A stretch of 64,000 nucleotides of DNA from Candidatus Methylomirabilis sp. (GCA_020722725.1 DYKG01000001.1:215106-279105); one strand, 5' to 3'. Numbered from the stretch's first letter, positions 14,180 to 48,471 are shown. The notes: a model not told the origin generated them from the sequence alone. Numbers and translations: made by a program.

Positions 14180-16819
14180 ATGTTCAACAGAACAGGGTAC
14201 AAAACTCTGTTGGTCTGGCGAAATACAATGAGGTATTATGATAATAGTTTGAGGGCGTACAGGGGTAAAAATGTGAATAGAAGAAACATGCGAAAAAGCG
14301 GTTCGGCTTATCTGATGGCGCTCGGGGTTCTGGCTGTACTGGTGCTGATTGGCATCGCACTTTCGCGCATGACCCTGACCGGCCGATGGACAACCATTTT
14401 CAGCAGTAATGAAAAAAAGGCCGAAGAATGTGCCGAGTCGGCAGCTAACTTGACTTTCAAGGTTGTCAAAGACAACATGAACGATTACAGCGCATTCTGG
14501 CGTCTGTTTAACGACCCCGATGAGCTGTTGAAAAGCTGGTTCATGTATTTTCGTCTGCCTGCACCGGTTGCCGGCGCTTATGTTGACCCGGTAAGCTTTG
14601 AAAATGCCAGGGCAAACGGTGTGGATGTTCAGCTCGACCTTTTCAACAGCACGATTTTCAAGCCTTTATATGAAAAGGGTATCGTTTACATGTTCGATAC
14701 CATTTCACCTGATCCCAAGGCCCCCCTGGCACCTCTTAAGGGAATGTTCGACGCTCTTGGTGGCAGGGTCAGGGTTACCTGCACCGCGCGCATAAAAAAT
14801 GCTTTCGCCATTCTTGCCGATAATCCCGATTATGTCGTCGGTGGCGTGGAAGTGCCTTTGCGCAAGGTTACCGGCTTTCTTGGCAATATTTACGACAAGA
14901 TCAAAATCGGTGCTGCTGATGTAATTTCCGGTGATAAAGATTCAACCGACCCAACGGGTGAAGAAGACGCCGGTTTTCCCAACATCGATGTAATCAATTT
15001 TCTTCCCGATGATCCACTCTTGAAGGCTCCCGATATCAGTAATTTCACGATTATCGTGCAGGGAGTTCCGGTTCCGGTTGGCATAATTCTGCAAAAACCC
15101 CTCGATGCTATTTTTAACAAAATCGCCACATCTCTGGGTCTGACACCACGAAAGATTGCTAAAAAACTCTTTGGTGGTGCCCTTCAGTTCAAGATCGACT
15201 TTAGCGCAATCAACAAGCGCATTGAAGAAGCGATTCAGAATTGTCTGCCCAAGTTTCTCCAGGCTTTTGCCGGCAATGCTTCATTCGACATTACCGTTGA
15301 AAAGCAGGGTATCTTTGAAGTGGTTACCGAGGTTGAATACACCCCTAAGTATCCTGATGGTGCGACCATCAAAAAACGACTGGTCATGCAGCGCGAATTC
15401 CGCGTTGCCGATGTTCAGCCTATTGCTTCTGATTACACCTTTTTTGTCGCCAATTCAAAGCTGCTTTATGAAAAGGCTCTGGAAAATTTTGATAACTGGG
15501 GCGGCGATGACGAGATAAAATGGAATGAAGGCATGGGAACCATCGTAATTCACAATATGCCTTCACTTGAAAAAATATGGGATTCCCTGAAAAACATATT
15601 TTCATTTGAAATCAGAAAACTGGCCCAGAATCTTCAATTGCCAGGACTTGTGCGAATAAACGGCACCAAAGAGATGCTTCTTAAACTTACCATGTTCGAA
15701 AAATTTCCGGTAGGAGAAGGGGCTCTTGATGTTTTCAAGAAAATGGAAATAGCCGCTTTGCTGCTATCTCATCCCGATGGGCAGAAAACCGCCTGTGCCG
15801 ACGACCACCCTTCTGGTGGTAGCAGTCATAACATTATCCCCGGTTTGAAAAGTGTTACTTACAACTTCTGGGACAAAGGAAAGCCTTTTGACTGGGGCTA
15901 TTTCGGGGGCGGTGACCCCGGCGGATTGGGAACTTACTGGTTGCCTATTCCACCAATGTTCGCCAGAACCCTGCTTTTCGGCAACTTTCATCTCGAGTTC
16001 CCAATGTCTATGCGGGTAGAAGGCTATCTGAAGAAAGTTTATACGCATATCAAGCTTTTGCTGGTAAAAATTTACATTCCGCCAATTCCCATTATCGGCT
16101 TTCTTGGTATGGATATTCCTATTCCGTGGTTCTGGGCAGCGGCAAAGAAAGAGCCTTACGGGTTCTGCAAATGGCCGCCCTACAAAACAGAAGACGAAGG
16201 CAAAACCGCCTGGGACCCCAATAAAAAGGGAAACCTGCCGGCAAATGTCTATTCGCCGACCCAATATCTCAAAAAAGCCAGCTATTTCTATGCCTCTTCC
16301 CAGGAATTCAATAAAGACATTGAAAACCGCACGATCATTTACAATGGCAAAGAAACCTTCATTTGTGATGGCATTACTTTCGTAAACGACAATCTCTGGA
16401 TAACCAATCCACTGCATGTCATGGGGCGTGGAATAATAGTCGCCGCCGCCAATGTTCATCTCAACGCTGAAATTACCCGCGAAGACAAAGATGACAATGG
16501 CAACAACACGCTTTTTTCGATTGTGGCGCGAAATGGTGCAATCATTAACCATTATGGCAAACGCAGTGTTTCTGCCTGTCTCTATGGCGACAAGGGGCTA
16601 ATGAACCCAATCGGAGCCAGTCTGGATGTACACGGCAATCTCGTGGTCAATCGCTTTAACCGTAAAGACTGCCAGGGCGACCTGCATGTCTATTACGAAT
16701 CGAATCATTGCCGCAGTTCTCTGCTTTCAATGATCAGACCTGTGGCGAAATGGGATCCGACCAGATACTATGTTACCCTGAGTGCCCAGACCGCATTATT
16801 TCAGTTTGAGAAACTATAG
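14180..16819 (+). CDS. Giant GspK/PilX-like minor pseudopilin-like protein (module 1, K-like subunit)
   Basis: After a likely internal start near 14288 the N-terminus reads MRKSGSAYLMALGVLAVLVLIGIALSRMT. That is a GspK-type hydrophobic N-terminus lacking Glu5. The C-terminal half is clearly paralogous to the 42985-44940 protein (PANVYSPTQYLKKASYFYASSQEFNKDIENR vs PANYYSIEQYAKKSNYYYNSEENFLKDLPNR, VMGRGIIVAAANVHL vs VTGRGMIVVSGNVSL, and WDPTRYYVTLS vs YDPRRYYLALS). Confidence 0.5.
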   Translation: MFNRTGYKTLLVWRNTMRYYDNSLRAYRGKNVNRRNMRKSGSAYLMALGVLAVLVLIGIALSRMTLTGRWTTIFSSNEKKAEECAESAANLTFKVVKDNMNDYSAFWRLFNDPDELLKSWFMYFRLPAPVAGAYVDPVSFENARANGVDVQLDLFNSTIFKPLYEKGIVYMFDTISPDPKAPLAPLKGMFDALGGRVRVTCTARIKNAFAILADNPDYVVGGVEVPLRKVTGFLGNIYDKIKIGAADVISGDKDSTDPTGEEDAGFPNIDVINFLPDDPLLKAPDISNFTIIVQGVPVPVGIILQKPLDAIFNKIATSLGLTPRKIAKKLFGGALQFKIDFSAINKRIEEAIQNCLPKFLQAFAGNASFDITVEKQGIFEVVTEVEYTPKYPDGATIKKRLVMQREFRVADVQPIASDYTFFVANSKLLYEKALENFDNWGGDDEIKWNEGMGTIVIHNMPSLEKIWDSLKNIFSFEIRKLAQNLQLPGLVRINGTKEMLLKLTMFEKFPVGEGALDVFKKMEIAALLLSHPDGQKTACADDHPSGGSSHNIIPGLKSVTYNFWDKGKPFDWGYFGGGDPGGLGTYWLPIPPMFARTLLFGNFHLEFPMSMRVEGYLKKVYTHIKLLLVKIYIPPIPIIGFLGMDIPIPWFWAAAKKEPYGFCKWPPYKTEDEGKTAWDPNKKGNLPANVYSPTQYLKKASYFYASSQEFNKDIENRTIIYNGKETFICDGITFVNDNLWITNPLHVMGRGIIVAAANVHLNAEITREDKDDNGNNTLFSIVARNGAIINHYGKRSVSACLYGDKGLMNPIGASLDVHGNLVVNRFNRKDCQGDLHVYYESNHCRSSLLSMIRPVAKWDPTRYYVTLSAQTALFQFEKL

Positions 16820-26172: not shown

Positions 26173-27708
26173 TCAGGAGATTCTATCCCTGTTGTCAGCG
26201 ACCATCTGTGCCTGGGTCATTTTTCTTATTTCGCCGCGATATTCATTGATTTGAGCTTTATCGAACCCTCTGCTTTCTAGAAAAGCGATTTCCCAGAGGT
26301 TGTAGTCCTGGTGAACTGGCATCGTGGCAGATCTCAGATAAATCTGGTTCATTTGTGCTGAGGCTTCTTTCCAGTCCATGGTTGAATGAGACCACAGAAG
26401 TCCGTTGCCCTTTAGAGAATATTTTTCAGCGTCTCTGGCAATGGGCGTATGGTGCAGATAATAAAACAGCTGCATGAAATAATAATCAAGGCCTGCATTT
26501 TCGATGAATTCTTCAGTTAAAGCCAGGGTTTCCTGAGTTTCTCCCGGAAATCCAATCACGAAAGAACCGACCGTAGTGATTCCGGCGTTTTTAAGCCATT
26601 TTATCCCACGGCGATAATGCTCTACCGAAGCTCCTTTACCAATATTTTCCAGAATCTGGTCTGCGCCGCTCTCAATTCCAAGAAAAACCCCGCAGCAACC
26701 ACTAAGACGCATCTTTTCAACGATTACCTCATCGATGAATTGGCAACGCAAAAAAGAATACCAGGGAATCTTAATTTCAAGCTGAATCATTCGGTCGAGA
26801 AGGCTGGCAAAACGGTTCTGTGGAACATTAAAAGTATCATCGGAAAAAATAACCGACTTTACCCCGATGCTTTGTGCCTGTTTGAGCATGATTATGACAT
26901 TTTCAATATCCATAAGTTCGCGTTTTCCCCAGATAACCGGATAAGAGCAGAAAGCGCATTTGAAGCTGCATCCTCTTCCTGAGTGCAGATGAATAACCGA
27001 ACCTTCAGGAATTCCGCGCAGATCGACGGGGGCATCGATATCGTTATTCTCTGGAACCCGGCTGGTTTCAAGTATTTCGCCACTATCGTTTTTATACAGT
27101 AGGTTTGGAACTGATTCTATCTTATCCGGGAATTGCTTTATAAGCTGCAGAAGGCTTTCCTGCCCCTGAGCATCGTTAATAAAAGCATTAAGTGAAGTTG
27201 CTTTGAGGTAAGAACGCTTCTGTTTTTCATTCATGTGCAGTAGCGTAGTAAAAATATGTTGTCCGCCTGCAACGATAAAGATATCGGGGAATTCATGCCG
27301 AAGAAGTCTGGCCGCCTGATTGAGCTGCGCCGGCGATAGAATGAAGGTGGTGCCCAGACAAATCATTTCTGGGGCAAAGTCTTTGATTTGTTCAAATCTT
27401 TTTTTGATGTTGCACTCATCGATGTGGTTGATCAGCAAAACCTCAATTCCCGATTTTTCAAGATGGCTTTTAACGACCAGAGGTCCATTCAAAAACATTT
27501 CCCAGACGCTGAAACAATCATCAGAAGGAAGCTGCATGCGCATTTTCAACCATTCAAGATGGCCGATCATCGATCCGTCCTGTTGAAGAACACGGTTGAA
27601 GTTGTAGCCCCAACGCTCAGATTGGGTAGGGAAAATTTTGCCCGGAACCGTTATGATATGCCCGATCAGAGCAACTCTGGGCTGGCGTTTGCTGATCACG
27701 CGTTGCAT
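26173..27708 (-). CDS. B12-binding domain-containing radical SAM protein (class B)
   Basis: CxxxCxxC cluster (GCSFKCAFCSYP) in the central radical SAM domain, with an N-terminal Rossmann-like B12-binding region. It overlaps the upstream carrier-protein gene by 13 nt. Confidence 0.8.
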   Translation of the reverse strand: MQRVISKRQPRVALIGHIITVPGKIFPTQSERWGYNFNRVLQQDGSMIGHLEWLKMRMQLPSDDCFSVWEMFLNGPLVVKSHLEKSGIEVLLINHIDECNIKKRFEQIKDFAPEMICLGTTFILSPAQLNQAARLLRHEFPDIFIVAGGQHIFTTLLHMNEKQKRSYLKATSLNAFINDAQGQESLLQLIKQFPDKIESVPNLLYKNDSGEILETSRVPENNDIDAPVDLRGIPEGSVIHLHSGRGCSFKCAFCSYPVIWGKRELMDIENVIIMLKQAQSIGVKSVIFSDDTFNVPQNRFASLLDRMIQLEIKIPWYSFLRCQFIDEVIVEKMRLSGCCGVFLGIESGADQILENIGKGASVEHYRRGIKWLKNAGITTVGSFVIGFPGETQETLALTEEFIENAGLDYYFMQLFYYLHHTPIARDAEKYSLKGNGLLWSHSTMDWKEASAQMNQIYLRSATMPVHQDYNLWEIAFLESRGFDKAQINEYRGEIRKMTQAQMVADNRDRIS

Positions 27709-27944
27709 TCGCTTTCCACCAGGCTGGAAATGCTTTCTACTGAATCAAAGTTTTCCTGGTTGAAAAGATCTTCGGAGACATCGTAATTGAACTCGCGCTC
27801 AAGAAAGCCAACGATTTCAAGAACGTTTAAAGAGTCGATTCTGCCAACCAGTAGTAGCGAATCATCATCGCTGAATGGCTCTGAATCGCCCTTTCTTTGA
27901 AGTATTGAAGCAATGAATTTTCTTATTTTTTCATGTTTTTCCAT
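27696..27944 (-). CDS. Acyl/peptidyl carrier protein-like (DltC-like) protein
   Basis: 82 aa with an acidic, four-helix-sized sequence. It has a DSL phosphopantetheine-attachment motif (GRIDSLNVLEIVGFLE). Confidence 0.6.
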   Translation of the reverse strand: MEKHEKIRKFIASILQRKGDSEPFSDDDSLLLVGRIDSLNVLEIVGFLEREFNYDVSEDLFNQENFDSVESISSLVESECNA

Positions 27945-27947
27945 GGA

Positions 27948-29438
27948 TTACCTCGAATAAGGAACGAACAAATGTAACATAAAGGTCGCATAATCAGCAA
28001 TGGTTCGAGAGCGAATCGGGTCATCGAGAACCATTATCAGGCAATAGAACAATAATACCAGCAAAGTGGACATGACGCTTCGTTTTCTGTATGGGGAATT
28101 CATTGAGCGTATCTGCGAAATCCCAATCGATATGCCAAGAATCAAGGAATAGAGAAGGTAAACCCGAAAGCCCACCAATGCCTTCCAGAAACCCAATTCA
28201 ATAATCAGATCGATGTCGCGAAGGAAATGAAAAAGTGCATTGCCAAAGCCTGCTGCGGCAACGGTTGCAAAAAATACACGAAATCTGGGGTAATTTTTGA
28301 AAAACCTGAAATAGGCCGGGTAAAAGAAGAAATCGACGAGCAATTCTTTGAAGTAGTAGTACAGACGGTTATAAAACTCAGCGATAGTTTTTGCATACAA
28401 TGGCTTGTAAGTGTTTCTCAGGGCATTAAACCCCGCCATGCGGCAGGTTGCAATAATTATGCCGCCGTTGCTGGAAATCGCAAAAATCTTGTCAATGAAA
28501 TTGAAAATGAGCACAAGCCAACAGACATGCTGAGGAAAAGGCCTTCCTGCAATAGAGGCCTGAATTGCCATTTCCAGGCTTGGAATCGCGGGGAAATGAG
28601 CCAGAAATGGTTCGAGAAAACCCACGTCTCCGAATGCCACCTGCCGGAATATCATGTGTGCGAAAAGTAAAAACATTGACCAGAAAATCAATTTTAGCCC
28701 TTTAATCTGGGCGATTGCCAATTCGTAAGAAGTCTTCGCTTCAATTTTTCTGAGGTAAGCTTCACCTTTCGGGTAAGGAACATTTGAACTACCCCAGAAA
28801 GGCTGAAAATGAAAGATTTCGGTCAGCGAGAATGGCTTTGTCGCCCGGGATTTGTCGGTTAGTGAATATGCGATGAACCACAGATATTTTCCGGAAATGA
28901 TCAGGAAAAGCCAGATAAACCATGACAAATGGGTTGGTAAAGAAGCATGAGAGGCAAGCAGAAGGGAGCCAATGTAAAAAATCAGCAGGTTGCGTACTGG
29001 CCTGCGGAAAAACCAGTGTTCAGGAAATCGGCGCGCCAGATAAATCAAAAGGCTTGTCAGAAAAAAAAATGCCGCGAGACATGCCAATTTATAATATGAG
29101 TCGCCAGACATCGGAAGATGCCTGGAAAACCAGGTAAAATCCCTTTCGAAACAGGGGAATCTGATTGCCCAGAAGAGAGATGTCAGGGCGATGAGAGGCC
29201 TGCGGTAATCAGGCAGAAGCGTAATCATTGATAAAGCAACGAAAAGCTCGACAAACCTTTCTGTGTACAGACACGACATGGTGGAAAAAATTATTACAAA
29301 TATTATTTTCCCAAAGGTGGTCTGGCCAAATTTAAGAAGCGTGGGAATCGTTTCAAGGCGCGGAAGGTTCAGACTTGTCACTGTTTGGGCTCCTTTCTGA
29401 AAGAAGCTTGACAAGAGCTTTTCTGTCGATTTTTCCAT
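27948..29438 (-). CDS. MBOAT-like polytopic membrane protein (DltB/AlgI-like, tentative); start codon uncertain
   Basis: About 10-12 transmembrane helices. The segment EFYNRLYYYFKELLVDFFFYPAYF follows the MBOAT core pattern (FWRRWHxSLSxWLRDYLYIP), but the invariant His is replaced by Tyr. The annotated ORF overlaps the ligase gene by 86 nt, so the true start is probably internal. Confidence 0.4.
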   Translation of the reverse strand: MEKSTEKLLSSFFQKGAQTVTSLNLPRLETIPTLLKFGQTTFGKIIFVIIFSTMSCLYTERFVELFVALSMITLLPDYRRPLIALTSLFWAIRFPCFERDFTWFSRHLPMSGDSYYKLACLAAFFFLTSLLIYLARRFPEHWFFRRPVRNLLIFYIGSLLLASHASLPTHLSWFIWLFLIISGKYLWFIAYSLTDKSRATKPFSLTEIFHFQPFWGSSNVPYPKGEAYLRKIEAKTSYELAIAQIKGLKLIFWSMFLLFAHMIFRQVAFGDVGFLEPFLAHFPAIPSLEMAIQASIAGRPFPQHVCWLVLIFNFIDKIFAISSNGGIIIATCRMAGFNALRNTYKPLYAKTIAEFYNRLYYYFKELLVDFFFYPAYFRFFKNYPRFRVFFATVAAAGFGNALFHFLRDIDLIIELGFWKALVGFRVYLLYSLILGISIGISQIRSMNSPYRKRSVMSTLLVLLFYCLIMVLDDPIRSRTIADYATFMLHLFVPYSR

Positions 29439-30948
29439 TTGCGGTGAGTGGAATCTCTTCTAGAGATAGAATTTCTCTCGGCAAAACCCAGGGTGGAAGA
29501 TTTTCCCTGAGAATGGATTGAATTTTATTCAAACAAACTTTTGATTGAGACACAAAAGCGACGATGCCTTCCGCCAGGCCCTCTTTAATCGGCCAGGCAA
29601 CTGTTGCCACGGTATCTACACCGCAAATCCTTCGCAATTGAGCATCCAATTCTTCAAGTTCAACTCGGTGACCAAGTATCTTAACCTGGTTATCAATTCT
29701 TCCCAGATGGTGAAATTCGCCGTTTTTATCTTCAAAAGCCAGATCACCAGTGAGATACCAGGTCATTGGGCCGTATAAGGGATGGTTGAGAACCTTTAAG
29801 CGTTTTGAAGTCAATGTCTCGTCTTCCAGATACCCCGAGGTTAGCTGTGGACCGGCAATGACAAGTTCTCCCTTTGCCGGGGCAGAAAGGAATCGTTTTT
29901 CATCATCGACAATCGCCATTCTCATTTCCGGGTATGGTTTCCCAATTGAGATGATGTCGCGGCCATTGGCAAGAAAAGAGTTATCTGAGAGCCGATGCAT
30001 TGAACATGCCACCGTTGCTTCGGTTGGGCCATAATGATTGTCAATTACACTGTTGGGAGCAGCTTTTTTCCAGGCCTTCGCAGAAGAAAATGGCAATGGT
30101 TCTCCACAAAAATAAGACACACGCAAAGATGGAAAGCAGCCTTCTTTCAATAGCCCAAGCCGGGTTAGAAAGGTTATTGCAGAAGGAACCGATGCCCAGA
30201 AAGTAAGCTTCTGCTGCTGAATGAACCTGGAGGGTGCCATGATCTGCGATGATGGAACCACATGCAAAGATGCCCCTGAGAACCATGTCAGCCATAAATC
30301 CAGAACCGAAAAATCAAATGAAACCTCAGAAAAATTTGAAATTCTGTCTTCTGAACCAATCTGATAAAGGGTCTGCATATAACCGATAAATTTATACAGG
30401 CTGCCGGTACGTATCATCACTCCTTTGGGAACGCCGGTGGTTCCTGAGGTGAAGATTATGTAAGCGATTTCATCGGCGCTCAAACTTTGGGGCTCACTAA
30501 TTTCCCGGGCATAGTTTCCCTGGCGGACATCGTTTGGCAGCAATGCCTTGAATTCATCTGGATAAAGAACCTTACAATTTGCTGGAATTTCAATTTCAGA
30601 AAGCTTTTTTACCCCGTTTTCATCAACAATTAAGGCTGTGGGGCTGGTTTGTTCGAGAACGCTTTTTAAGGATGCTGCAGAAGCTTTGATGCTGATTGGT
30701 ATGTAAGTCGCGCCCGCCCAGCAGGTTCCCAGAATTCCCGCATAGGTTTCAAGGGAGCGCGAAGCCAGAATTGCAACTTTAAATCCATTGCCGGGATCCT
30801 GAAAGACATTCCTTAGCCAGGCAGAAACTGATGAGGCATAAGCGCCAAGTTCGAAATAGCTGTATTCCTTTTCGTTGACAAAAAGTGCAACGTTGTCAGG
30901 GGTTGTTCGAGAATAGCGGAAAAATGGCATTGTGGGATTAAAATTCAT
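29353..30948 (-). CDS. AMP-dependent ligase / adenylation-domain protein (DltA-like carrier-protein ligase)
   Basis: IFTSGTTGVPKGV (A3 motif), YGPTE and GELVIAGPQLTSGY adenylation motifs. It is a stand-alone domain of 531 aa. Confidence 0.8.
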   Translation of the reverse strand: MNFNPTMPFFRYSRTTPDNVALFVNEKEYSYFELGAYASSVSAWLRNVFQDPGNGFKVAILASRSLETYAGILGTCWAGATYIPISIKASAASLKSVLEQTSPTALIVDENGVKKLSEIEIPANCKVLYPDEFKALLPNDVRQGNYAREISEPQSLSADEIAYIIFTSGTTGVPKGVMIRTGSLYKFIGYMQTLYQIGSEDRISNFSEVSFDFSVLDLWLTWFSGASLHVVPSSQIMAPSRFIQQQKLTFWASVPSAITFLTRLGLLKEGCFPSLRVSYFCGEPLPFSSAKAWKKAAPNSVIDNHYGPTEATVACSMHRLSDNSFLANGRDIISIGKPYPEMRMAIVDDEKRFLSAPAKGELVIAGPQLTSGYLEDETLTSKRLKVLNHPLYGPMTWYLTGDLAFEDKNGEFHHLGRIDNQVKILGHRVELEELDAQLRRICGVDTVATVAWPIKEGLAEGIVAFVSQSKVCLNKIQSILRENLPPWVLPREILSLEEIPLTANGKIDRKALVKLLSERSPNSDKSEPSAP

Positions 30949-31339
30949 TTTTTAAAATGCCTTTCGAACTTTAGATAAAAGCTTTGTATATTTACTTAAA
31001 GACGAATTGGAACCAGGCCGTCAAGGCGATAAAGAAGAGGTAAAAACATTCAATGGGCTTTCGTATAACATATCATGGTTAAACATTGGCAGCAATATTG
31101 TCAACTCAAGTTTGTCGGTGTCAGTAATTCCAGGCCAGGCATTATTTTCACTATAAACGGCCACATCAATTTGCATAATATATAAAAGCTCATTGACTAT
31201 TTCTCAAATGCGGGCATTTCGACAAGCTCAATGACCGCATTTTTTCGGTCGCTGAGGCAGCGTAGCTGGTCGAAGCGGTGTAAAAAATTTGATTTTTTCA
31301 ACGTCAGGTTTCGATCAGTTAACCCTGGAAATCAGGCAA

Positions 31340-31370
31340 ATAAAAAAGCTGCCGCGATTTCGCAGCAGCT
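31340..31370 (-). terminator. Rho-independent terminator downstream of the SPFH/DUF4339 gene
   Basis: On the minus strand: GCTGCTGCGAAATCGCGGCAGC hairpin followed by TTTTTTATTT. Confidence 0.45.
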
Positions 31371-31432
31371 GAACCAACTTAACTTAAAACTTTTTCGTCA
31401 ATAAGCCGTTTAACGGCTACCTTGAACCGGAA

Positions 31433-32569
31433 TTACATTGGAGGAGGCGGCGGAGGTGGGGTGTGCGCAAAGAGTCCGCTGAGATTCGGGACTTCTGCTG
31501 CTTTTTTCCAGCCATCCTGCCCGGCGGTCCAAACCATGGTTGCGGGGGTAAGCTGGCCATTGGCGGCCAAATTCTGTAGATCAGCCTGGCTGAACGGGCC
31601 CTGGGTCTGCCCGTTGACTGCGACATGCCACTGAGCTCCACCAGGAAGCGGAGGGGGGGCCATCGGAGCAGCCATTCCCGGATTCATCATGCCGGCCATT
31701 CCCATTCCCATTCCCATGCCCATGCCTACACCGGCTCCAGCCATGCCGTTGGGATTGGCGGCTGCGGTGTTGAGGGCATTGAGTCTTTCAATGGTGGCAT
31801 AGGCGTTAAGGCCCTGAGTATTGATCGAACCCATGGCATTGATTGCGTGTGCATCAGCCATCTTGTCAGAGATTTTATCGATGCGTTCCTGGGTCTTTTC
31901 ATCGAAATCGGTGTTTTCGATACGGAAATCGCTCATTTCAAAGCCAAGCGGTGCAAATTCAGCGGCTACCAGCTCGGTTAGCTTCTTAGACAGCTCAAGG
32001 CGGTGTTTGTCGATTTCGGCATAGCTAAAACCGGCTTCGGCGAAAACATCGGCCAGCGGGGTCATGATGCGGTCAACGATAACGTTGCGAACCGAGCTTA
32101 TCGGCACTGCTTCCTGGTTGCTGGCAATTTCGGTGAAGAATTTGCGAACATCGGTGATGTGGAACGAGAAATTACCGAAAGCCCGCATGCCAACCGGAAA
32201 TTTATAAACCGGGTCATTATATTTGATTGGGGACTTGGTACCCCATTTCTGATTCAGGAATTCAGTAATGCGAACGAAATAAATTCTGGCTTTGTGTTCA
32301 GACTGAAAGCCCTGCATGATTTTGCTGATGGTGGTCCAGAAGGGAAGGTTGGCGGTTCGCAGTTCGAACATGCCGGGGTAATCATGAATTGCCTTTACCT
32401 GACCTTCATAGATAAACACTGCTGCCTGACCGGGGTTGATGATCAGCTTGGAGGCGTTTTTCAATTCATCGGTGCTGCCCTGCCATTGCCAGATCAGCAG
32501 ATCAGGGTCGGCGTCGACCCACTCAATAACCGATTTGACCTGGCCCTTAACGAAATCCATAATTCCCAT
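31433..32569 (-). CDS. SPFH-like domain protein with C-terminal GYF-like (DUF4339-type) domain
   Basis: The N-terminal ~270 aa resemble the SPFH/virion-core-like family. Then come a (GM)n low-complexity run, a Pro-rich stretch and GQTQGPFSQADLQNLAANGQLTPATMVWTAGQDGWKKAAEVPNL (DUF4339/GYF-like). The last residues are a poly-Pro run. Confidence 0.55.
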   Translation of the reverse strand: MGIMDFVKGQVKSVIEWVDADPDLLIWQWQGSTDELKNASKLIINPGQAAVFIYEGQVKAIHDYPGMFELRTANLPFWTTISKIMQGFQSEHKARIYFVRITEFLNQKWGTKSPIKYNDPVYKFPVGMRAFGNFSFHITDVRKFFTEIASNQEAVPISSVRNVIVDRIMTPLADVFAEAGFSYAEIDKHRLELSKKLTELVAAEFAPLGFEMSDFRIENTDFDEKTQERIDKISDKMADAHAINAMGSINTQGLNAYATIERLNALNTAAANPNGMAGAGVGMGMGMGMGMAGMMNPGMAAPMAPPPLPGGAQWHVAVNGQTQGPFSQADLQNLAANGQLTPATMVWTAGQDGWKKAAEVPNLSGLFAHTPPPPPPPM

Positions 32570-32675: not shown

Positions 32676-33263
32676 TTGAAAAGGAAGAAAAATATGGCAG
32701 TTCCCCAAATCAGCCTGCTTGAAGCAGTGAATCAGAAAAATTCAGAACTGGCGCTTGCTTTGATCGAAGCCGGTGCCGATGTCTGCCAGACCGACGAAAT
32801 TGGGGTAACCCCTCTGCATCAGGCAGGAAAATTCGGCATGATGGAAGTAGTGCATGCGCTGCTTGCTGCCGGCGCCAATGTTAATGCAGTGAACCGTGAC
32901 GGGGTAACCCCCCTGATCTGGGCTTCCGCCAGATCAAAACCGGAAAGTTTCAAAATTCTGCTTGAGCATGGCGCAATAATTACCTGCATAGATTGCGATG
33001 GCTGGTCGGCTTTTCACTGGGCCGCCTTTCGTGGTTGCCTGCCGATCGTCGAAATTTGCATCGCCAAAGGTTTGAAACCGAATCAGCCCGATAAAGATGG
33101 CTGGACAACTCTGCACCTGGCCGCCCAGCAGGGCTACCCGGATGTGGTCAAAGCATTACTGCATGCTGGTGCCGACAAGTCGCTGAAAAACGACAGTGGC
33201 CAGACCGCTGCCGATCTGGCCACTATGCAAAAACATGAAAACGTGACTGCTATTCTGCTCTGA
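32676..33263 (+). CDS. Ankyrin-repeat protein (about 5 repeats)
   Basis: Repeated G-TPLH-A-----G---vv--LL--GA--n motif (e.g. GVTPLHQAGKFGMMEVVHALLAAGANVNA). Confidence 0.85.
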   Translation: MKRKKNMAVPQISLLEAVNQKNSELALALIEAGADVCQTDEIGVTPLHQAGKFGMMEVVHALLAAGANVNAVNRDGVTPLIWASARSKPESFKILLEHGAIITCIDCDGWSAFHWAAFRGCLPIVEICIAKGLKPNQPDKDGWTTLHLAAQQGYPDVVKALLHAGADKSLKNDSGQTAADLATMQKHENVTAILL

Positions 33264-42158: not shown

Positions 42159-42971
42159 GTGCAAAAAGAGATCAAAGAGTTCTTCTCTGAACTTGACCTG
42201 AGTGATTTCAGGTTGATGTTTGTCGGCATGTTGCTTTTGCTGTTACCCCTCGCATATCTCTACCGGGTGACCGGTTCTTCGCCTGACCAGCAGCAGCAAA
42301 GAAGATATGCCACCAATGTCAGCAGGCAGTCGGCTTTTAACCTTGCCCCTGGCAAGAACAGCCTTCTATCTTCACCGGAAGCAAAAAAGCAATCTTTCAG
42401 CGTTAGCCCCCGGGTTGAAAAAATAGATTCAGAACTTGATCGAGCCTGGGCAAAAATACAAGCCACCCCAAGAGCCCGCAACATTCCTTCCGATGTTCCC
42501 CCTGAAACCCGGCAGATGATCGAAGCTGAAGATCACGAATTTCTTACCGAGGGCAATACCCTTCTCGACAGCGGAGATTTTGTGGCCGCTGAAACTGCTT
42601 TTGAGAAGGCAATCAAGAGTTCAGGGGGCAATCCTTTTGTTGAGCTTTATGCCTGGGGCGGCCTCATGGAAGCTTATGAAAAGACGGGAAACGTCATAAA
42701 ATTTCGCGAAGCATTTTCCAATTATGTCAAAAAAGCTCAGGAACTCAAGCACGTTTATGGGCCGCTGGCAGATAACATCGCACGGGCTCAGCAGATGTTC
42801 GAGCAACTGGCTCAGGCTGATCCAGCGAAGATCAGAGAGCATCTGCTCAAGCACAATCTCGCCAATAAGTCCAATATTACTTATGATCAGCTTTCTCGAC
42901 AAAGTACTTCGCGCCCTTTTTCATCGTATTCTCGACAAACCCCAGTTCTATCCGATCAAGATCTTTTTTGA
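42159..42971 (+). CDS. Membrane-anchored TPR-like hypothetical protein (GTG start)
   Basis: N-terminal transmembrane helix FRLMFVGMLLLLLPLAYLY, then a helical TPR-like region. It sits immediately upstream of pilin module 2. Confidence 0.4.
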   Translation: MQKEIKEFFSELDLSDFRLMFVGMLLLLLPLAYLYRVTGSSPDQQQQRRYATNVSRQSAFNLAPGKNSLLSSPEAKKQSFSVSPRVEKIDSELDRAWAKIQATPRARNIPSDVPPETRQMIEAEDHEFLTEGNTLLDSGDFVAAETAFEKAIKSSGGNPFVELYAWGGLMEAYEKTGNVIKFREAFSNYVKKAQELKHVYGPLADNIARAQQMFEQLAQADPAKIREHLLKHNLANKSNITYDQLSRQSTSRPFSSYSRQTPVLSDQDLF

Positions 42972-42984
42972 CAAAGATTTTTTT

Positions 42985-44940
42985 ATGCAGGCGGCAGACC
43001 TTTGGCCTGCTGGAGTTAAAGTTCCGGCAGACCACAGCCGTTATGTCGAAAAGTACGGAACTCTGAAAGTCACATCAATTGCACGTATTAATTTCAATGA
43101 TGGAACTTTCTCAGAGCGGCGCATTGATGCAACCAAGGATTTCAAAGTCTCTGATACCGAGCCGATGGCACCTTTATACAGTTTCTTCTGTGCCAATACT
43201 ACCAATGACCGAATAAATTTTAATGATAACGGTGGTCAGTTTTATGTTAACAACAGTTCGGGTCGATTACTCAGCCGTGAAGAACGCGAAACCCGCAAAG
43301 AACTCGCCGGTCAGATCAGGGTTAATTTCAAACCTGAAGATTACGTCGACGAGTCAACGCCGGGCACCCCGCTGGTAATAAACACTTCTCTCATGGGTCA
43401 TTATGATGGCCCCAAGCTTACTGAAAGCGAATTCGGTAACCGGGCGGTCAATCTTTCGGCGGGAACCGATGGTCTTATAATGCTTGGCCGAACCAAGACC
43501 ATGATTATTTCAAAAGCTTCTTACAATATTGATACCACTATCAATTCCAAAAATGTAAACACCAAAAAGGGAAGTCCGCTGCCCAGGGAACTGAAATTCT
43601 CACGTGGTCCGGTGCGACATGGTTTTCAGCTTTCATCAACAGCCCTTCCAAATGTTAAATGGCTGGCGCGAGATGCGGAATATCAGAAGAATCGCAAACA
43701 ATATCAGAGCAGCGCTTTAAAACAGCGCAACGATTCTTACCAGTGGTGGGCGCAGGATCCCCACAAAATGAAGCATGAAGATTATCTTAAGAAAAAGGCG
43801 GAAAGCATAAATTTCCTTCCCGATCCTGAAAAAATCAGTTCAAATATCATCCTTTTCGGGATAAGCATGGCAATTCGCGGAATGGGAAAATCAATCACTA
43901 TTCCACCTGCCGGAACGGTAACTTTTGGTTCCACCCCTCCGGTTGATGCTTTCGCCCGCATGATGCTGCCATGGATGGGCACGCGAAACAGCTATTATTG
44001 CCTGCCTTCACTAGGCTGGGGCCAGAACAAGACCCATCTATTCGGCAATTTCGCCTGGTATCCAACGCTTTCGCGTGATATCGAAGGCATGGTGGCCAAA
44101 CGCTATCGCCAGTGGCATGTAACCATAATCGGCCTGTTTGCCAAAGACCGTTTTCCTTTGTTGCCTTTCCCGCCGCCCTGGTGTTTCGTTCCGCCAATAC
44201 CGGTGCCTTTCTGGTTTGCCGACCAGATCATCAACAAATATGATTACAACATGTTTTTCATGAAAGCCTATGATCCTGATGACGACGCGGCAGACGGCAG
44301 TCTGTCGATGTATGACCCCGATTATATGATGAATATGCCGGCCAACTATTATTCGATCGAACAATACGCCAAGAAATCAAATTATTATTACAATAGCGAA
44401 GAAAATTTTCTCAAAGATCTACCAAACCGCATGATCGATATTGACGGCAAAAGGGCTTTGCAACTTAACGGGGTAACCTTCATTGCAGGATCTCCGGGCG
44501 CAGACAGCAGGCCTTTCGTTCCTCCCGAGGGCGGCGATACTTTCTACGTCACCGGCCGAGGCATGATCGTTGTTTCCGGTAATGTAAGTCTGGGTTGTAA
44601 CATTAAATGTATCGATGAACCTGAGAGAAGAACGATTTTCAGTCTGGTTGTGCGAAATGGCGGCCTGATTGTAACCAATAACGGCAACTTCTTTTTTGAA
44701 GGCTCTCTCTATACTAATCGCGGTTTGTATGTTGGTTCAAATACTAATTTGAATATTCAGGGAAACTGGGTCACCAACGAATTTGCCAAGCATCGAATGC
44801 GTGGCGAGGTCATGATTGATTACGTCGCTTCGCGAGTTAGATCTTCCCTCGGAAGTCTGCACCCGGTAACTGGAAAATACGACCCGCGCCGCTATTATCT
44901 TGCCCTGTCGCCGCGCTGGAACGCCTGGAAGGTTGATTGA
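42985..44940 (+). CDS. Giant GspK-like minor pseudopilin-like protein, paralog of 14180-16819 (module 2); start uncertain
   Basis: The C-terminal 400 aa are clearly paralogous to the module 1 K-like protein (shared LFGNF, PANxYSxxQYxKKxxYxYxSxExFxKDxxNR, GRGxIVxxxNVxL and YDPRRYY motifs). The long ORF begins at 42724 and overlaps the upstream gene. The first ATG after that gene's stop is 42985, and it has no Shine-Dalgarno. Confidence 0.5.
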   Translation: MQAADLWPAGVKVPADHSRYVEKYGTLKVTSIARINFNDGTFSERRIDATKDFKVSDTEPMAPLYSFFCANTTNDRINFNDNGGQFYVNNSSGRLLSREERETRKELAGQIRVNFKPEDYVDESTPGTPLVINTSLMGHYDGPKLTESEFGNRAVNLSAGTDGLIMLGRTKTMIISKASYNIDTTINSKNVNTKKGSPLPRELKFSRGPVRHGFQLSSTALPNVKWLARDAEYQKNRKQYQSSALKQRNDSYQWWAQDPHKMKHEDYLKKKAESINFLPDPEKISSNIILFGISMAIRGMGKSITIPPAGTVTFGSTPPVDAFARMMLPWMGTRNSYYCLPSLGWGQNKTHLFGNFAWYPTLSRDIEGMVAKRYRQWHVTIIGLFAKDRFPLLPFPPPWCFVPPIPVPFWFADQIINKYDYNMFFMKAYDPDDDAADGSLSMYDPDYMMNMPANYYSIEQYAKKSNYYYNSEENFLKDLPNRMIDIDGKRALQLNGVTFIAGSPGADSRPFVPPEGGDTFYVTGRGMIVVSGNVSLGCNIKCIDEPERRTIFSLVVRNGGLIVTNNGNFFFEGSLYTNRGLYVGSNTNLNIQGNWVTNEFAKHRMRGEVMIDYVASRVRSSLGSLHPVTGKYDPRRYYLALSPRWNAWKVD

Positions 44941-45430: not shown

Positions 45431-46945
45431 ATGCCGGCAAAAAATAAAGGAGCAACCCTGATCGAAGTGGTTGTGGTAACCGTTCTGGCATCTATGATCT
45501 TTGGCTCAGCCATGGGAATCTGGAGCTATGCCAGGCGAAACATGTCAAGAACTGCTACCCGGCAGACCCTGCAACAGGATGCCAGCCGAATTCTGACTCA
45601 TCTTTCAGCCGACCTCAAGGCCGCCAAGGGTGAAACTTTTTCATCGACTGAAGATCCTATGGCTCTTGAGTTTACCCGTTATTGTGTTAATTCTGAAGAT
45701 AACAGCAGGCTTTCCAGTGAAATGACCCAGAAAGTTAAATATGTATTTAAAAAGCCGGTTTTGCGTCGCTATGTTGATGGAAAACTTGAAAATTCTCTTT
45801 CATACAGTGTTGAGAATATTCAGGTTAAACGTAAAGAGATTTCTGAAGAAGTCAGAAAAAGCGATCCCTATCTCGAAGCCCGCGTCGATATAATGCTCGA
45901 AATGGGCCAGCGTGCCCCTGGAACATCTTCTGATGAGCATTTTATCAAGCATACTTCGGCAGTTATTCGCGATGAGTTTTATGCCCTCGCCAATAAAGAA
46001 AGAGCTGATGTTTTCGATGAAGCTGACAAGGCTGCCGAAGAAATGGTTAAAGACAATGATTCCAGCTTTTTTTCTGACACTTTCGATGCTGATTCGCTAA
46101 AAAGCCTTACCGATGAGCAGCTCAATGACCTCGAAAAAACTCAGGAAGTAAATCTGGCTGATGCCAAAAAGGGACTCGACGAGATTGAAAAGCAGATTAA
46201 AAAAGTAGATTCTGGCGATGGTTTTTTCAACATGTGGTGGTGGAAAAGCGAAGAAGCGGAGCAGGTCGAAGAGTTGAAGCAGGAACTGATGGATATCGGA
46301 TGCCCTGACAGCGGCATTCCTCCTAAAGACTCTGGCAATCGGGCTTCCCAGAAGGCGGAAAAAATTGTGACAAAGCTCGATGATCAGATAAAAACTATGG
46401 AAAAGCGTTTCATGGAGAAAGCTTTCGCCTGCAGTTATGCTAGTCCTGACAGTACCGACCCCGCAGTAAAAGAAAAAGCAGATCTGCAAAAACGTGCCTA
46501 TGACATGAAAGTCATGGATCGTCAGGTAGAAAATGCGCTTAAAGAGATGAGCGACGAAGAAAAGGCTGAGGCTGAGGCCAATGGCTCGATTCCGCGCAGG
46601 ATGATCGACCAGTATTCGCGCAGCGACGAAGAAATCCGTCGTGAAATCGTCAGCTCCGGCATTGCTCCTGAGGGCTCTGCTGAACTTGAAGAAATGGTGC
46701 AGAAAGAGATTGCCAAAGTTAACGCTTTGAAGGCTGAATATAATAGCTGCAATGTCGAATTTCTTGATGATGGTTCAGAAAACGAACGCACCATTCAGGC
46801 ATATGATGCTGCAAAACAGCTGAAAAGTCTGGCTCAGAGCAAAAGCGATACCTTTGAACTGAAAGAACTGGCGATTGATAACCTGGCAGAAATTGAAGAA
46901 GCAAGAAAGCTCAAGAAAGAGCAACTGCAGGATACCAATAATTAA
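45431..46945 (+). CDS. GspJ-like minor pseudopilin with ~310-aa acidic coiled-coil C-terminal extension (module 2)
   Basis: An AGGAGG Shine-Dalgarno precedes the start. MPAKNKGATLIEVVVVTVLASMIFG looks like a prepilin signal with Glu+5. A pilin-sized domain is followed by a long D/E/K-rich predicted helical region. Confidence 0.55.
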   Translation: MPAKNKGATLIEVVVVTVLASMIFGSAMGIWSYARRNMSRTATRQTLQQDASRILTHLSADLKAAKGETFSSTEDPMALEFTRYCVNSEDNSRLSSEMTQKVKYVFKKPVLRRYVDGKLENSLSYSVENIQVKRKEISEEVRKSDPYLEARVDIMLEMGQRAPGTSSDEHFIKHTSAVIRDEFYALANKERADVFDEADKAAEEMVKDNDSSFFSDTFDADSLKSLTDEQLNDLEKTQEVNLADAKKGLDEIEKQIKKVDSGDGFFNMWWWKSEEAEQVEELKQELMDIGCPDSGIPPKDSGNRASQKAEKIVTKLDDQIKTMEKRFMEKAFACSYASPDSTDPAVKEKADLQKRAYDMKVMDRQVENALKEMSDEEKAEAEANGSIPRRMIDQYSRSDEEIRREIVSSGIAPEGSAELEEMVQKEIAKVNALKAEYNSCNVEFLDDGSENERTIQAYDAAKQLKSLAQSKSDTFELKELAIDNLAEIEEARKLKKEQLQDTNN

Positions 46946-46959
46946 GCTTTGCCATTTCT

Positions 46960-48471
46960 TTACTGGTTTTTTCTCTTAAAAATGCCGAATCTTTCGGTTT
47001 GCAGGGTAATTTCGTAATTTTCAAACAAAAAGCGGCCAAGCTCTGGAAAATCCTGGGCAGTGTCAGGGCCGCTGACTCTTGATTTTAAAAAGACATAGAT
47101 AAACAGGTCAGGCGGTGATTTTTTGAGGGTTTCTATAAATTCGCTTCTCAGACCAGCGATGAATGGGTTTGATACGTGGTGAAAAAAATGGTAATCGTAA
47201 AGAAATCTCGACGCAGTCTGAACTTTTGCCAGAAGCATGCCGTGAATTGCGCCATTTACCCAGTCAAGCGACTGAACTTTCATTCCTGGTTTTAAATTTT
47301 GTTTTAAATAGCTGCAAATTTGATCGGGCACTCCTCCCAGAGGAGGGGAAGGTAATTCGCCCTTGAGCTGTGCCGAAAATTCTGAAGAAATCCCAGTCTG
47401 CGCAACCAGTATAAGAATGGCTCCAAAGGTAAGCATTTTAGCCGGCCTGGTTGGAAAGGATTGGATCAGAAAAACTGAAAATGAGCAGCTGATACAGGCG
47501 AAAAGCAAAAAGGGCGACCAGTGATAAAACCAGAATTGACCTGAAATTGCCGGGTAAAAAAAGCCCAGGGCGCTGAGCAATACAATAACTTTAAAATCAT
47601 TTTTTGATTGGCTGTCGATAAGCCGGTTTGCCAGAAGTAAAATAACCAGAGTTGCCAGAGTAAGGGGCAGAAAATCATTCAGCAGAAATATCCCTGAAAG
47701 GCAATACCAGAATTTTTGCGGCCATTGAATTATGGTAAAATCATGACTGATTTGTGTGTGCAACGGCAGATAGTTAAAAAATATTTTAAAAAAATCATTC
47801 AAACCACCAAGATGAAAAACCCATAGTAACGGAATTGAAAAGCTGGTTGCTGACCCGGAAATAACTGCAAGAATTGAGCTGAATCCGCGGCTGTTAAGCC
47901 AGAGAAGTGGAACAATAAAAACGATCAAATGTGGTTTGAAACAGGCACCGATTCCAACTAGAAATCCAAAAAAAAATATTTTAATCAAAGGGTTCAGATG
48001 TGAAAGTCGCTGACCAGCCAAAATTAAAGCAGCAAGCACGGCGATGATACCAATAAAATCTCTTTGCAGAGCCATCTGGGGCCCCAGTGACTGGTAGGTA
48101 AGGCCGAAAAGAAGGGCTCCAAAGACTCCCTGAGTCCGGGAAAAACGCGAAAGAAAAAAGTAAATCAAAAAAACTGCAAGCACTAGAAAGGCAGAGTCCA
48201 GAATTCTTACTGCCAGATCAGAATAACCGAATAATTTTCCGATAAGACTGTGAAACAAAAGGGTGCCTGGCATGCTGGTTTCAAAAATATCTCGATATGG
48301 AGTCAGTCCGTGCTCATTGATCAGATAGCCTGCATAATTCAACAGGGGGGTATCAAGGTATTGACGCCACTGCAGGCTGGCAAGCAGTTGGGCTGAAAAG
48401 ACCAGCCCCATGATTAAACAGAGCAGTTTAATCGCCGGTTTTAAATAATTGTTTTGTTCGGTTTGTTCCAT
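46960..48471 (-). CDS. Polytopic membrane protein, probable GT-C-type glycosyltransferase (ArnT/PMT-like, family 39/83-like)
   Basis: About 11-12 transmembrane helices with an early DxD-like loop and a C-terminal soluble domain of ~120 aa. The assignment rests on architecture only. Confidence 0.4.
   Translation of the reverse strand: MEQTEQNNYLKPAIKLLCLIMGLVFSAQLLASLQWRQYLDTPLLNYAGYLINEHGLTPYRDIFETSMPGTLLFHSLIGKLFGYSDLAVRILDSAFLVLAVFLIYFFLSRFSRTQGVFGALLFGLTYQSLGPQMALQRDFIGIIAVLAALILAGQRLSHLNPLIKIFFFGFLVGIGACFKPHLIVFIVPLLWLNSRGFSSILAVISGSATSFSIPLLWVFHLGGLNDFFKIFFNYLPLHTQISHDFTIIQWPQKFWYCLSGIFLLNDFLPLTLATLVILLLANRLIDSQSKNDFKVIVLLSALGFFYPAISGQFWFYHWSPFLLFACISCSFSVFLIQSFPTRPAKMLTFGAILILVAQTGISSEFSAQLKGELPSPPLGGVPDQICSYLKQNLKPGMKVQSLDWVNGAIHGMLLAKVQTASRFLYDYHFFHHVSNPFIAGLRSEFIETLKKSPPDLFIYVFLKSRVSGPDTAQDFPELGRFLFENYEITLQTERFGIFKRKNQ

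Follow-up and report, generated by a model that had tools for sequence, protein, structure and literature searches.

A stretch of 64,000 nucleotides from Candidatus Methylomirabilis sp. (GCA_020722725.1 DYKG01000001.1:215106-279105), hereafter the window, contains four co-directional, tightly packed minus-strand genes (26173-30948, from open reading frame (ORF) calling) that we read as a self-contained cassette for carrier-dependent aminoacyl transfer. The cassette would follow the logic of the Dlt system with proteins of other families: a radical S-adenosylmethionine (rSAM) enzyme would tailor the aminoacyl group, and a protein of the membrane-bound O-acyltransferase (MBOAT) fold would transfer it to the cell envelope. 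We give this reading a probability of roughly 0.55. An earlier note, made from the DNA alone, had described a tightly coupled set of ligase, MBOAT-like protein, carrier and class-B rSAM enzyme. All four identities proved right, and all ORFs are present as it had placed them, with junctions as described or tighter. It had also proposed that a carrier-tethered aminoacyl group is tailored, perhaps by methylation, which is the reading favoured by the comparative data.

The first of the four genes (29353-30948) encodes a ligase of 531 amino acids (aa) of the nonribosomal peptide synthetase (NRPS) adenylation-domain (A-domain) type. It overlaps by 29 nt the gene for the MBOAT-fold membrane protein (27948-29381). 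The longest ORF of the latter extends to 29438 and would give 496 aa, but the true start is probably the GTG at 29381 (477 aa), which has AAAGGAG just 5' of it, is identical to the JGI gene call and is consistent with the N-termini of homologues. Only 3 nt separate this gene from that of an 82-aa phosphopantetheine carrier protein (27696-27944), and the stop of the carrier gene is in turn overlapped by 13 nt by the start of the last gene (26173-27708), which encodes a PhpK-like, class-B (cobalamin-type) rSAM enzyme of 511 aa.

The ligase was retrieved with the Pfam profiles AMP-binding (E 8e-69) and AMP-binding_C. It has the NRPS A-domain core motifs A3 (IFTSGTTGVPKGV, 30418-30456), A4 (FDFSVLDLW, 30292-30318), A5 (NHYGPTEATVA, 30007-30039) and A10 (NGKIDR, 29422-29439), together with the motif SYFCGE (30100-30117) and the residues Asp235 and Lys517 expected for alpha-amino acid substrates. 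With the NCBIfam model AA-adenyl-dom (TIGR01733) it reached 308.7 bits, just below the cut-off of 317. The DltA models gave 262 bits (TIGR01734, cut-off 560) and 282 bits (NF003417, cut-off 476), so the ligase does not qualify as a DltA equivalog. Its best single-domain match among solved structures was AlmE (4oxi, 264 bits), compared with 185-187 bits for DltA.

At the ten Stachelhaus positions the ligase reads DFLAYCHVAK. Codes were taken from the alignment, in which the controls behaved as expected, a GrsA fragment giving the canonical DAWTIAAICK and six real DltA sequences giving DLM[TVI][LFVM]CTVAK. Asp235, Cys301, Val330, Ala331 and Lys517 are common to the pockets of the window ligase and DltA, and the F/L, L/M and Y/F changes are conservative; we take Cys301 to be the Cys that selects D-Ala in DltA. 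Because the remaining pocket positions are taken up by bulky residues (Phe, Leu, Tyr and His), the substrate is probably the size of Ala or D-Ala, or else a small polar residue. Prediction of a particular amino acid from the code was abandoned, as no matching known code was found and the code string is absent from the literature searched. The inspection of the pocket suggested in the earlier note therefore yields a DltA-like, crowded pocket but no named substrate. Elsewhere in the family (ligases of loci L008-L087), about 30 different codes occur, grouped by lineage, such as DIFFFALVVK, DNFYAALVVK, DHFFLALVDK, DLFFLCLVAK and DFLNVGLVSK. Given this number of codes and their grouping by lineage, the amino acid transferred probably differs between clades.

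The carrier matches the Pfam PP-binding profile (E 9.4e-8) and has its attachment serine, Ser38, in the motif IDSLN (27825-27839). Conservation of this serine, which the earlier note presumed, is complete: it is invariant in 84 family carriers and aligned with the serine of DltC. The best NCBIfam models for the carrier are generic acyl carrier proteins, while the DltC model gave 15 bits against a cut-off of 68. A weak match to 'ACP_for_OlsHI' brought up the ornithine-lipid OlsHI pathway, which was rejected on the enzyme types involved, OlsH being a GH3-like enzyme and OlsI an alpha/beta hydrolase (PMC12493201).

The membrane protein belongs to a family that profile searches do not recognize. 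It had no match in Pfam or NCBIfam even at E=10; none of 56 family members matched the Pfam MBOAT profile or the NCBIfam DltB model up to E=10, and the family profile found no match among PDB sequences. More than 900 homologues were detected, all of them 'hypothetical' and none with a Pfam domain. A search of 1.8 billion representatives with the family profile returned 1017 clusters at 50% identity, 425 of them below E 1e-30, and did not reach the canonical MBOATs.

Nevertheless, the predicted structure and profile–profile comparisons both point to DltB. An AlphaFold model computed from the 56-sequence alignment (predicted local distance difference test (pLDDT) 89.3, predicted template modelling score (pTM) 0.87) retrieved DltB from the PDB as the top Foldseek match (8jem and 6bug; E 4e-6), followed only by other MBOATs (HHAT, PORCN, LPCAT3, DGAT1, ACAT and MBOAT7). 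Reference profiles were built from six authentic dltXABCD operons found in Firmicute plasmid records. With hhalign, the family profile aligned to the six DltB sequences at 94.3% probability and to a set of 11 MBOATs (DltB plus five other Pfam-positive proteins) at 95.4% (E 1.7e-8, 234 columns). Weak tblastn matches from DltB fall in the same core region in many family members. In the window this conserved core is CRMAGFNALRNTYKPLYAKTIAEFYNRLYYYFKE (28344-28445), and its family version, CRMAGFNALRNTYxPLxSxTIAEFWNR, aligns with the MBOAT core MGxxTPxNFNKPFxAxNIKEFWNRWH; a conserved loop, PFWGSSNVPYPKGEAYLRKIEAK, is located at 28734-28802. The hhalign alignment places the extra length of the family at the N-terminus and not in two extra C-terminal helices. 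Judged by its modelled structure, the membrane protein has a divergent version of the MBOAT fold, closest to that of DltB. The MBOAT-like call of the earlier note is thus upheld by fold and profile alignment, whereas the HMM (hidden Markov model) search that it had proposed finds nothing.

The active site appears to differ from that of canonical MBOATs. In the aligned columns, RWH of the MBOATs corresponds to RYY in the family, and GxWH to GxW followed by a variable residue. Seven residues are invariant in the family (N357, R358, Y362, K364, E365, N400 and H404), and Asn357 is the retained Asn of EFWNR. N400 and H404 are found in the motif GFGNALFHF (28224-28250), the pair lying 12-15 residues upstream of the canonical position, with H404 closing the helix ahead of the canonical His position. 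Bacterial MBOATs carry a C-terminal FxYxxF acyl-shuttle motif with a tyrosine (PMC12148441). This motif is not kept at the C-terminus of the 56 members, and a fused acyl shuttle of the form DYxxF was rejected as well, Tyr483 being conserved in only 29 of them.

The fourth protein was retrieved with the Pfam profile Radical_SAM (E 2e-22) and, below the cut-off, with B12-binding (PF02310; E 3.8e-4), a domain that is recorded for most of its homologues. Its [4Fe-4S] motif is CSFKCAFC (26947-26970), and the three cysteines of the CxxxCxxC core (C247, C251 and C254) are invariant in 20 homologues. The NCBIfam model of the PhpK family, TIGR04479, aligned over the full length with 347 bits, short of its cut-off of 600; the next model scored 110 bits. 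The AlphaFold2 model (pLDDT 86) has an N-terminal beta-alpha domain, and its top fold matches were TsrM, MgmA, AprD4, OxsB, CysS and TokK. The CysS and TokK entries matched are complexes with pantetheinylated substrates. Given the CxxxCxxC core and a predicted cobalamin-binding Rossmann domain at the N-terminus, the enzyme is of the class-B type. Most characterized class-B rSAM enzymes are methylases.

Ligase, membrane protein and carrier form a widespread module that is found well outside the clade with the rSAM enzyme. In a scan of one genome per GTDB species, at least 410 species encode the membrane family, and the best 80 were examined. Their hosts are metagenome-assembled genomes (MAGs) of Acidobacteriota, Desulfobulbia/Desulfuromonadia, Gammaproteobacteria, Verrucomicrobiota, Planctomycetota, Methylomirabilota, Binatia, Alphaproteobacteria and Riflebacteria; every one of these lineages is diderm and lacks teichoic acid. 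In nearly all of the 80 species-level genomes the membrane gene is immediately followed by the carrier gene; in most, the ligase gene sits just before the membrane gene, and it is occasionally found after the carrier gene or a few kb away. In about 70 of the 80 species the trio stands alone, and most have no fourth gene. All-against-all clustering of the neighbourhood ORFs revealed no recurrent family beyond the trio, with the exception of two tailoring enzymes. A tblastn search with five DltD and five DltX sequences gave no match at E<=0.1, either in the window or among the 143 loci collected (L001-L143), and the ORFs flanking the operon, including those of the region 30949-31432, contain no DltX-like small ORF. 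We read the trio as an ancestral, widespread and unannotated module, and the rSAM enzyme as a clade-specific tailoring add-on. Since the trio has no DltD or DltX nearby and mostly no fourth gene, the rSAM enzyme does not replace DltD, as the earlier note had supposed.

That note had also proposed a survey of other genomes for the four-gene synteny. The cassette recurs in the same order on at least ten independent contigs, from Bryobacteraceae, Verrucomicrobiae and several metagenomes, and the arrangement is more than chance. Within the set of 80 species, rSAM genes are limited to the closest clade, namely Bryobacteraceae (L003/L009) and Verrucomicrobiae (L010), with a remnant in Bryobacterales (L011). 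An rSAM gene lies directly 3' of the carrier gene in the window, L003/L009, L010, L089, L090, L091, L093, L094, L096, L136, L152 and one JGI contig, and these rSAM-carrier pairs span Acidobacteriota, Verrucomicrobiota and the lineage of the window. The rSAM homologues of L089, L090, L091, L093, L094, L096 and L136, each with a carrier gene immediately upstream, are at least 55% identical to that of the window. L152 and the JGI contig are more distant (50-51% for the rSAM enzyme and 44-45% for the membrane protein) and keep the order ligase-membrane-carrier-rSAM. The rSAM gene also stays after the carrier gene where the other genes are rearranged: L090 has the order membrane-ligase-carrier-rSAM, and on the short contig L089 the ligase and carrier genes are direct neighbours, in that order, with no membrane gene between. 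A further locus, L092 (6632-8653), contains a single ORF of 673 aa in which an N-terminal ligase fragment (profile positions 46-178) is joined to a complete B12-rSAM protein. It was considered and rejected as a designed A-domain-rSAM fusion; no other part of the ligase is present, nor is a gene for the membrane protein or the carrier, and we regard it as a deletion remnant or a misassembly.

The rSAM gene also follows the specificity code of the ligase. The code DFLA[YF]CHVAK was found in 9 of the 69 aligned family ligases, eight of which have an intact rSAM gene beside the carrier gene, while the ninth, that of L011, has a remnant. None of the 60 ligases that bear the other codes (about 30) is accompanied by an rSAM gene. 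In L152, the code is identical to that of the window and the rSAM gene is adjacent. The code of a Riflebacteria MAG whose rSAM gene is unlinked from the trio is DFLAYCHVGK. The rSAM enzyme is thus associated exclusively with one ligase code, DFLA[YF]CHV[AG]K, whether it is adjacent, a remnant or, once, elsewhere in the genome, and it therefore travels with one substrate choice.

Two of these genomes deserve a separate description. The Bryobacterales MAG (L011:9705-10100) has an intact trio with the code DFLAYCHVAK and about 130 rSAM residues left after the carrier; its accessory rSAM gene appears to be decaying. The Candidatus Riflebacteria MAG (GCA_015233155.1; L007/L008 and L088) is the closest named relative. 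Frameshifts or sequencing errors, in our view, have broken both its ligase gene and its membrane gene into two ORFs each, and its rSAM orthologue (65% identity) is encoded after two large PAS/histidine-kinase genes.

In other clades a different enzyme takes the place of the rSAM protein. Sixteen of the 80 loci, all outside the closest clade, encode a protein of approximately 520 aa in which an AMP-binding_C fragment is interrupted by a Methyltransf_12 domain of the NRPS M-domain type (L032:4702-6261, L037:9710-11287, L071:3535-5103 and 13 further loci of L008-L087). With an A-sub start, Methyltransf_12 and an A9/A10-like tail, it resembles an NRPS 'interrupted A domain' lacking the A-core. Its gene directly follows the carrier gene in 13 of these 16 loci, in the slot that the rSAM gene has in the window. 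Because this methyltransferase occupies the post-carrier place in other clades, the slot after the carrier is a variable tailoring slot.

More distant relatives of the rSAM enzyme (32-49% identity) adjoin canonical, Pfam-positive MBOATs in L097, L104, L130, L133 and L137. Cassettes of the FkbH/carrier/rSAM/MBOAT type, which also include a MaoC/SDR protein, were located at L133:4117-9602, L104:6983-13660, L097:1846-8551, L134:6779-10290, L137:9-3544 and L130:12-3199. Their gene order varies: L133 encodes an FkbH-like loader, a PP-binding carrier, a B12-rSAM protein and an MBOAT, L104 encodes the rSAM protein, the MBOAT, a 74-aa ORF, an FkbH-like protein and MaoC/SDR proteins, and L137 has a GDSL protein in addition. 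FkbH-carrier-rSAM-MBOAT cassettes are apparently undescribed. In L122, a 78-aa ORF directly upstream of a distant rSAM gene was considered as a carrier and rejected. Two contigs of JGI 3300072015 (P0206 and P0165) contain rSAM homologues of 46-48% identity within large NeuB/DegT/CTP-transferase sugar clusters of the nonulosonic-acid type, along with a PP-binding protein, a MaoC/SDR protein and an unannotated protein of approximately 617 aa, which may be FkbH-like.

From these data we propose a mechanism in three steps. The stand-alone A-domain ligase, as its motifs indicate, would adenylate a small alpha-amino acid and load it as a thioester onto the phosphopantetheine at Ser38 of the 82-aa carrier. 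The cobalamin rSAM enzyme would then modify the aminoacyl group before it leaves the pantetheine arm, most likely by C-methylation; the genetics suggest this step, because the rSAM gene is joined to the carrier gene and occurs only with one ligase specificity code. Finally, the MBOAT-fold protein, whose activity we predict from its fold, would accept the modified aminoacyl group at the cytoplasmic face, where the carrier delivers it, and transfer it through the membrane to an acceptor in the diderm envelope, which could be a lipid, lipopolysaccharide (LPS) or another glycan. Because the family has neither the DltX shuttle peptide nor a DltD/SGNH partner, transfer would be direct, and the invariant Asn400/His404 pair may stand in for the two canonical MBOAT histidines.

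Several observations weigh against this proposal. In the profile alignment, residues other than histidine stand opposite the two histidines shared by all MBOATs of the reference set; with both replaced, catalysis by the membrane protein is not guaranteed, and the placing of H404 in the active site is an assumption. The rSAM enzyme scores below the cut-off of the PhpK family, and class-B enzymes also perform non-methylating chemistry, AprD4 and OxsB being among the best fold matches. The correlation between ligase code and rSAM gene comes from a single clade, so that its instances are not phylogenetically independent, and in the Riflebacteria MAG the rSAM orthologue and the trio are on separate contigs. 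Most family members also work without any tailoring enzyme.

It is hardly credible that the rSAM gene is a chance neighbour with an unrelated function. Most family members do lack it, and in one MAG it is found beside two-component sensor genes, but the same adjacency recurs on at least ten independent contigs across phyla at 50-80% identity, with a stop/start overlap and an exclusive tie to one ligase code. Alternatively, the enzyme may belong to the pathway and act elsewhere than on the carrier thioester, its substrate being the free amino acid or a precursor, the acceptor or a lipid-linked product. A unique ligase code would be equally expected if the enzyme supplied a non-standard free amino acid, its gene is unlinked from the trio in one MAG, and lipid-acting class-B rSAM enzymes (HpnR, HpnJ and the ladderane type) are among the weaker NCBIfam matches. 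We nonetheless consider this unlikely. The rSAM gene stays after the carrier gene despite rearrangement (L089 and L090) and overlaps the carrier stop in the window, CysS and TokK bind pantetheinylated substrates, and relatives of the enzyme co-occur with carriers that are loaded by FkbH, a quite different enzyme. This co-occurrence points to a carrier-bound species as the common feature.

If the enzyme does act on the carrier, its chemistry might be other than C-methylation: P-methylation of a phosphinate or phosphonate amino acid (the reaction of PhpK), epimerization, dehydration or rearrangement. The PhpK family (TIGR04479) is by far the closest characterized family (347 bits, as opposed to at most 110 for the others), and the top structural matches include AprD4, a dehydratase, and OxsB, which catalyses a ring contraction. 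The ligase pocket has a His at position 322, which, to judge from A domains that activate Asp (code DLTKVGHIGK), is typical of acidic side chains and could suit a phosphono or phosphino amino acid. Such chemistry is rather improbable, however, as the score is well under the PhpK cut-off of 600, no phosphonate-biosynthesis gene or other recurrent gene accompanies the cassettes, and most characterized class-B enzymes methylate. In most loci with a methyltransferase, the accessory in the same slot is a plain S-adenosylmethionine (SAM) methyltransferase, which also points to methylation. To a similar degree, we doubt that the cassette is a minimal natural-product or lipid pathway in which the aminoacyl group is esterified to a membrane lipid within the bilayer, without transmembrane transfer. 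This differs from the carrier-to-envelope transfer proposed above only in acceptor and topology, and would suit the lack of a DltD/SGNH extracytoplasmic partner and of a shuttle motif (Tyr483 in 29 of 56), the second-tier fold matches to lipid-acylating MBOATs (MBOAT7, LPCAT3, DGAT1 and ACAT), and a cassette that stands alone without glycan-synthesis neighbours. On the other hand, DltB is clearly the best structural and profile match, and the Dlt-type transmembrane route is the only one for which carrier-protein donors are known.

Beyond tailoring and transfer as such, a more inclusive scheme can be put forward tentatively, with the odds against it holding in full. The trio may be a widespread, tRNA-independent system by which diderms aminoacylate an envelope lipid or glycan, using an MBOAT with a relocated catalytic His and no DltX/DltD relay. 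The amino acid would be lineage-specific and, in the clade of the window, a non-proteinogenic one made on the carrier by a cobalamin rSAM C-methylase; PhpK-like rSAM enzymes would then be dedicated tailors of carrier-dependent MBOAT systems.

On the 5' side of the cassette, the intergenic region ahead of the ligase gene (30949-31432, minus strand) contains a hairpin and two weak sigma-70-like sites. The hairpin (31347-31370, minus strand) is strong and terminator-like, with a 10-bp stem that includes seven GC pairs and is followed by a T-run, TTTTTATTTG. It is located directly after an SPFH/GYF-domain gene (31433-32569), which it parts from the cassette. The candidate sigma-70-like sites (31141-31169 and 31097-31124) are both weak, and matches in the promoter scan 5' of the ligase gene were no commoner than in shuffled sequence, so only the hairpin is notable. 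On the 3' side, the operon converges with a gene for an outer-membrane-type beta-barrel. Further neighbours encode ClpA/B-like, ABC-F and ankyrin proteins, an M48 peptidase and a permease, none of them cassette-related; the ankyrin-repeat protein is bacterial, of 195 aa (32676-33263, plus strand).

Two genes farther away have functions that could conceivably touch the pathway. An S-adenosylhomocysteine hydrolase gene (8358-9794, minus strand), approximately 16 kb from the cassette, could serve SAM recycling, and a gene for a PMT_2/ArnT-like GT-C glycosyltransferase (46960-48471, minus strand), approximately 16 kb away on the opposite side, could serve envelope modification. Neither is linked to the cassette in other genomes. 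The window also contains large plus-strand ORFs of 504-879 aa without any Pfam match (42724-44940, 45431-46945 and 14180-16819).

Dlt of Firmicutes, which controls surface charge, resistance to antimicrobial peptides and autolysis, is essentially the only known case of carrier-dependent MBOAT transfer. An unannotated MBOAT-fold family with its own ligase and carrier in soil and sediment diderms would imply an unrecognized envelope decoration, in Acidobacteria above all. Its apparent function without the DltX/DltD relay or the canonical MBOAT histidines bears on the acyl-Tyr shuttle model for bacterial MBOATs. As a compact four-gene system, the cassette should also allow the substrate of a PhpK-like cobalamin enzyme to be read off the carrier by mass spectrometry. 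The association of rSAM enzyme, carrier and MBOAT recurs with two types of loader and two MBOAT families, suggesting that a large uncharacterized rSAM subfamily has a general, so far undescribed role in carrier-MBOAT systems.

No published description of such a cassette was found in full-text literature searches, which did not cover subscription-only papers, and the earlier note, too, was aware of no described dlt-type system with an rSAM partner. The cassette belongs to neither Dlt nor AlmEFG. With Dlt (dltXABCD of Firmicutes) it shares a carrier-thioester donor and an MBOAT, but its genes are not dlt orthologues, and it is not a dlt operon with an exchanged fourth gene, as the earlier note had framed it. 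The DltA and DltC models fall far short of their cut-offs, the DltB and MBOAT HMMs have no match, and DltX and DltD are absent from the loci. In the alignment, the membrane protein lacks both canonical MBOAT histidines, and it has approximately 85 extra N-terminal residues. Furthermore, the hosts are diderms without teichoic acids, the ligase codes vary widely, and an rSAM enzyme or SAM methyltransferase is optional. AlmEFG of Vibrio cholerae, which places glycine on lipid A, resembles the cassette in its stand-alone A-domain ligase and small carrier and in serving a Gram-negative envelope. However, AlmG is an LpxL-type acyltransferase and not an MBOAT, and AlmEFG has no radical-SAM component. 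The cassette in turn has no AlmG-type gene, its recurrent neighbours being only the MBOAT-like gene, the carrier gene and the methyltransferase or rSAM gene.

The MBOAT-SGNH systems (PatA/PatB, AlgI/J/X and WssH/I) share the MBOAT fold, and their core '...P..a..i.EFWNR' aligns with that of the family. They use acyl-CoA donors, the shuttle tyrosine of FxYxxF and an SGNH partner (PMC12148441), whereas the cassette has a carrier-protein donor, no conserved C-terminal Tyr and no SGNH partner. CysS, TokK/ThnK and PhpK have the same CxxxCxxC core after a Rossmann-type cobalamin domain, and PhpK is the closest HMM; in contrast, the cassette enzyme scores below the PhpK cut-off, has no phosphonate pathway nearby, and has an MBOAT transfer system as its partner in place of an antibiotic assembly line. 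The FkbH-carrier-rSAM-MBOAT cassettes (L133, L104, L097 and L134) contain the same four roles of loader, carrier, PhpK-like rSAM enzyme and MBOAT. They differ in that the loader is an FkbH-like glyceryl loader and not an A domain, the MBOAT is canonical (PF03062), a GDSL/SGNH protein is sometimes present, and the rSAM enzymes are only 32-49% identical to that of the window. The logic proposed for the cassette is Dlt-like; what is new is that its MBOAT family is unannotated, that relay proteins are absent and that a cobalamin radical-SAM enzyme probably does the tailoring.

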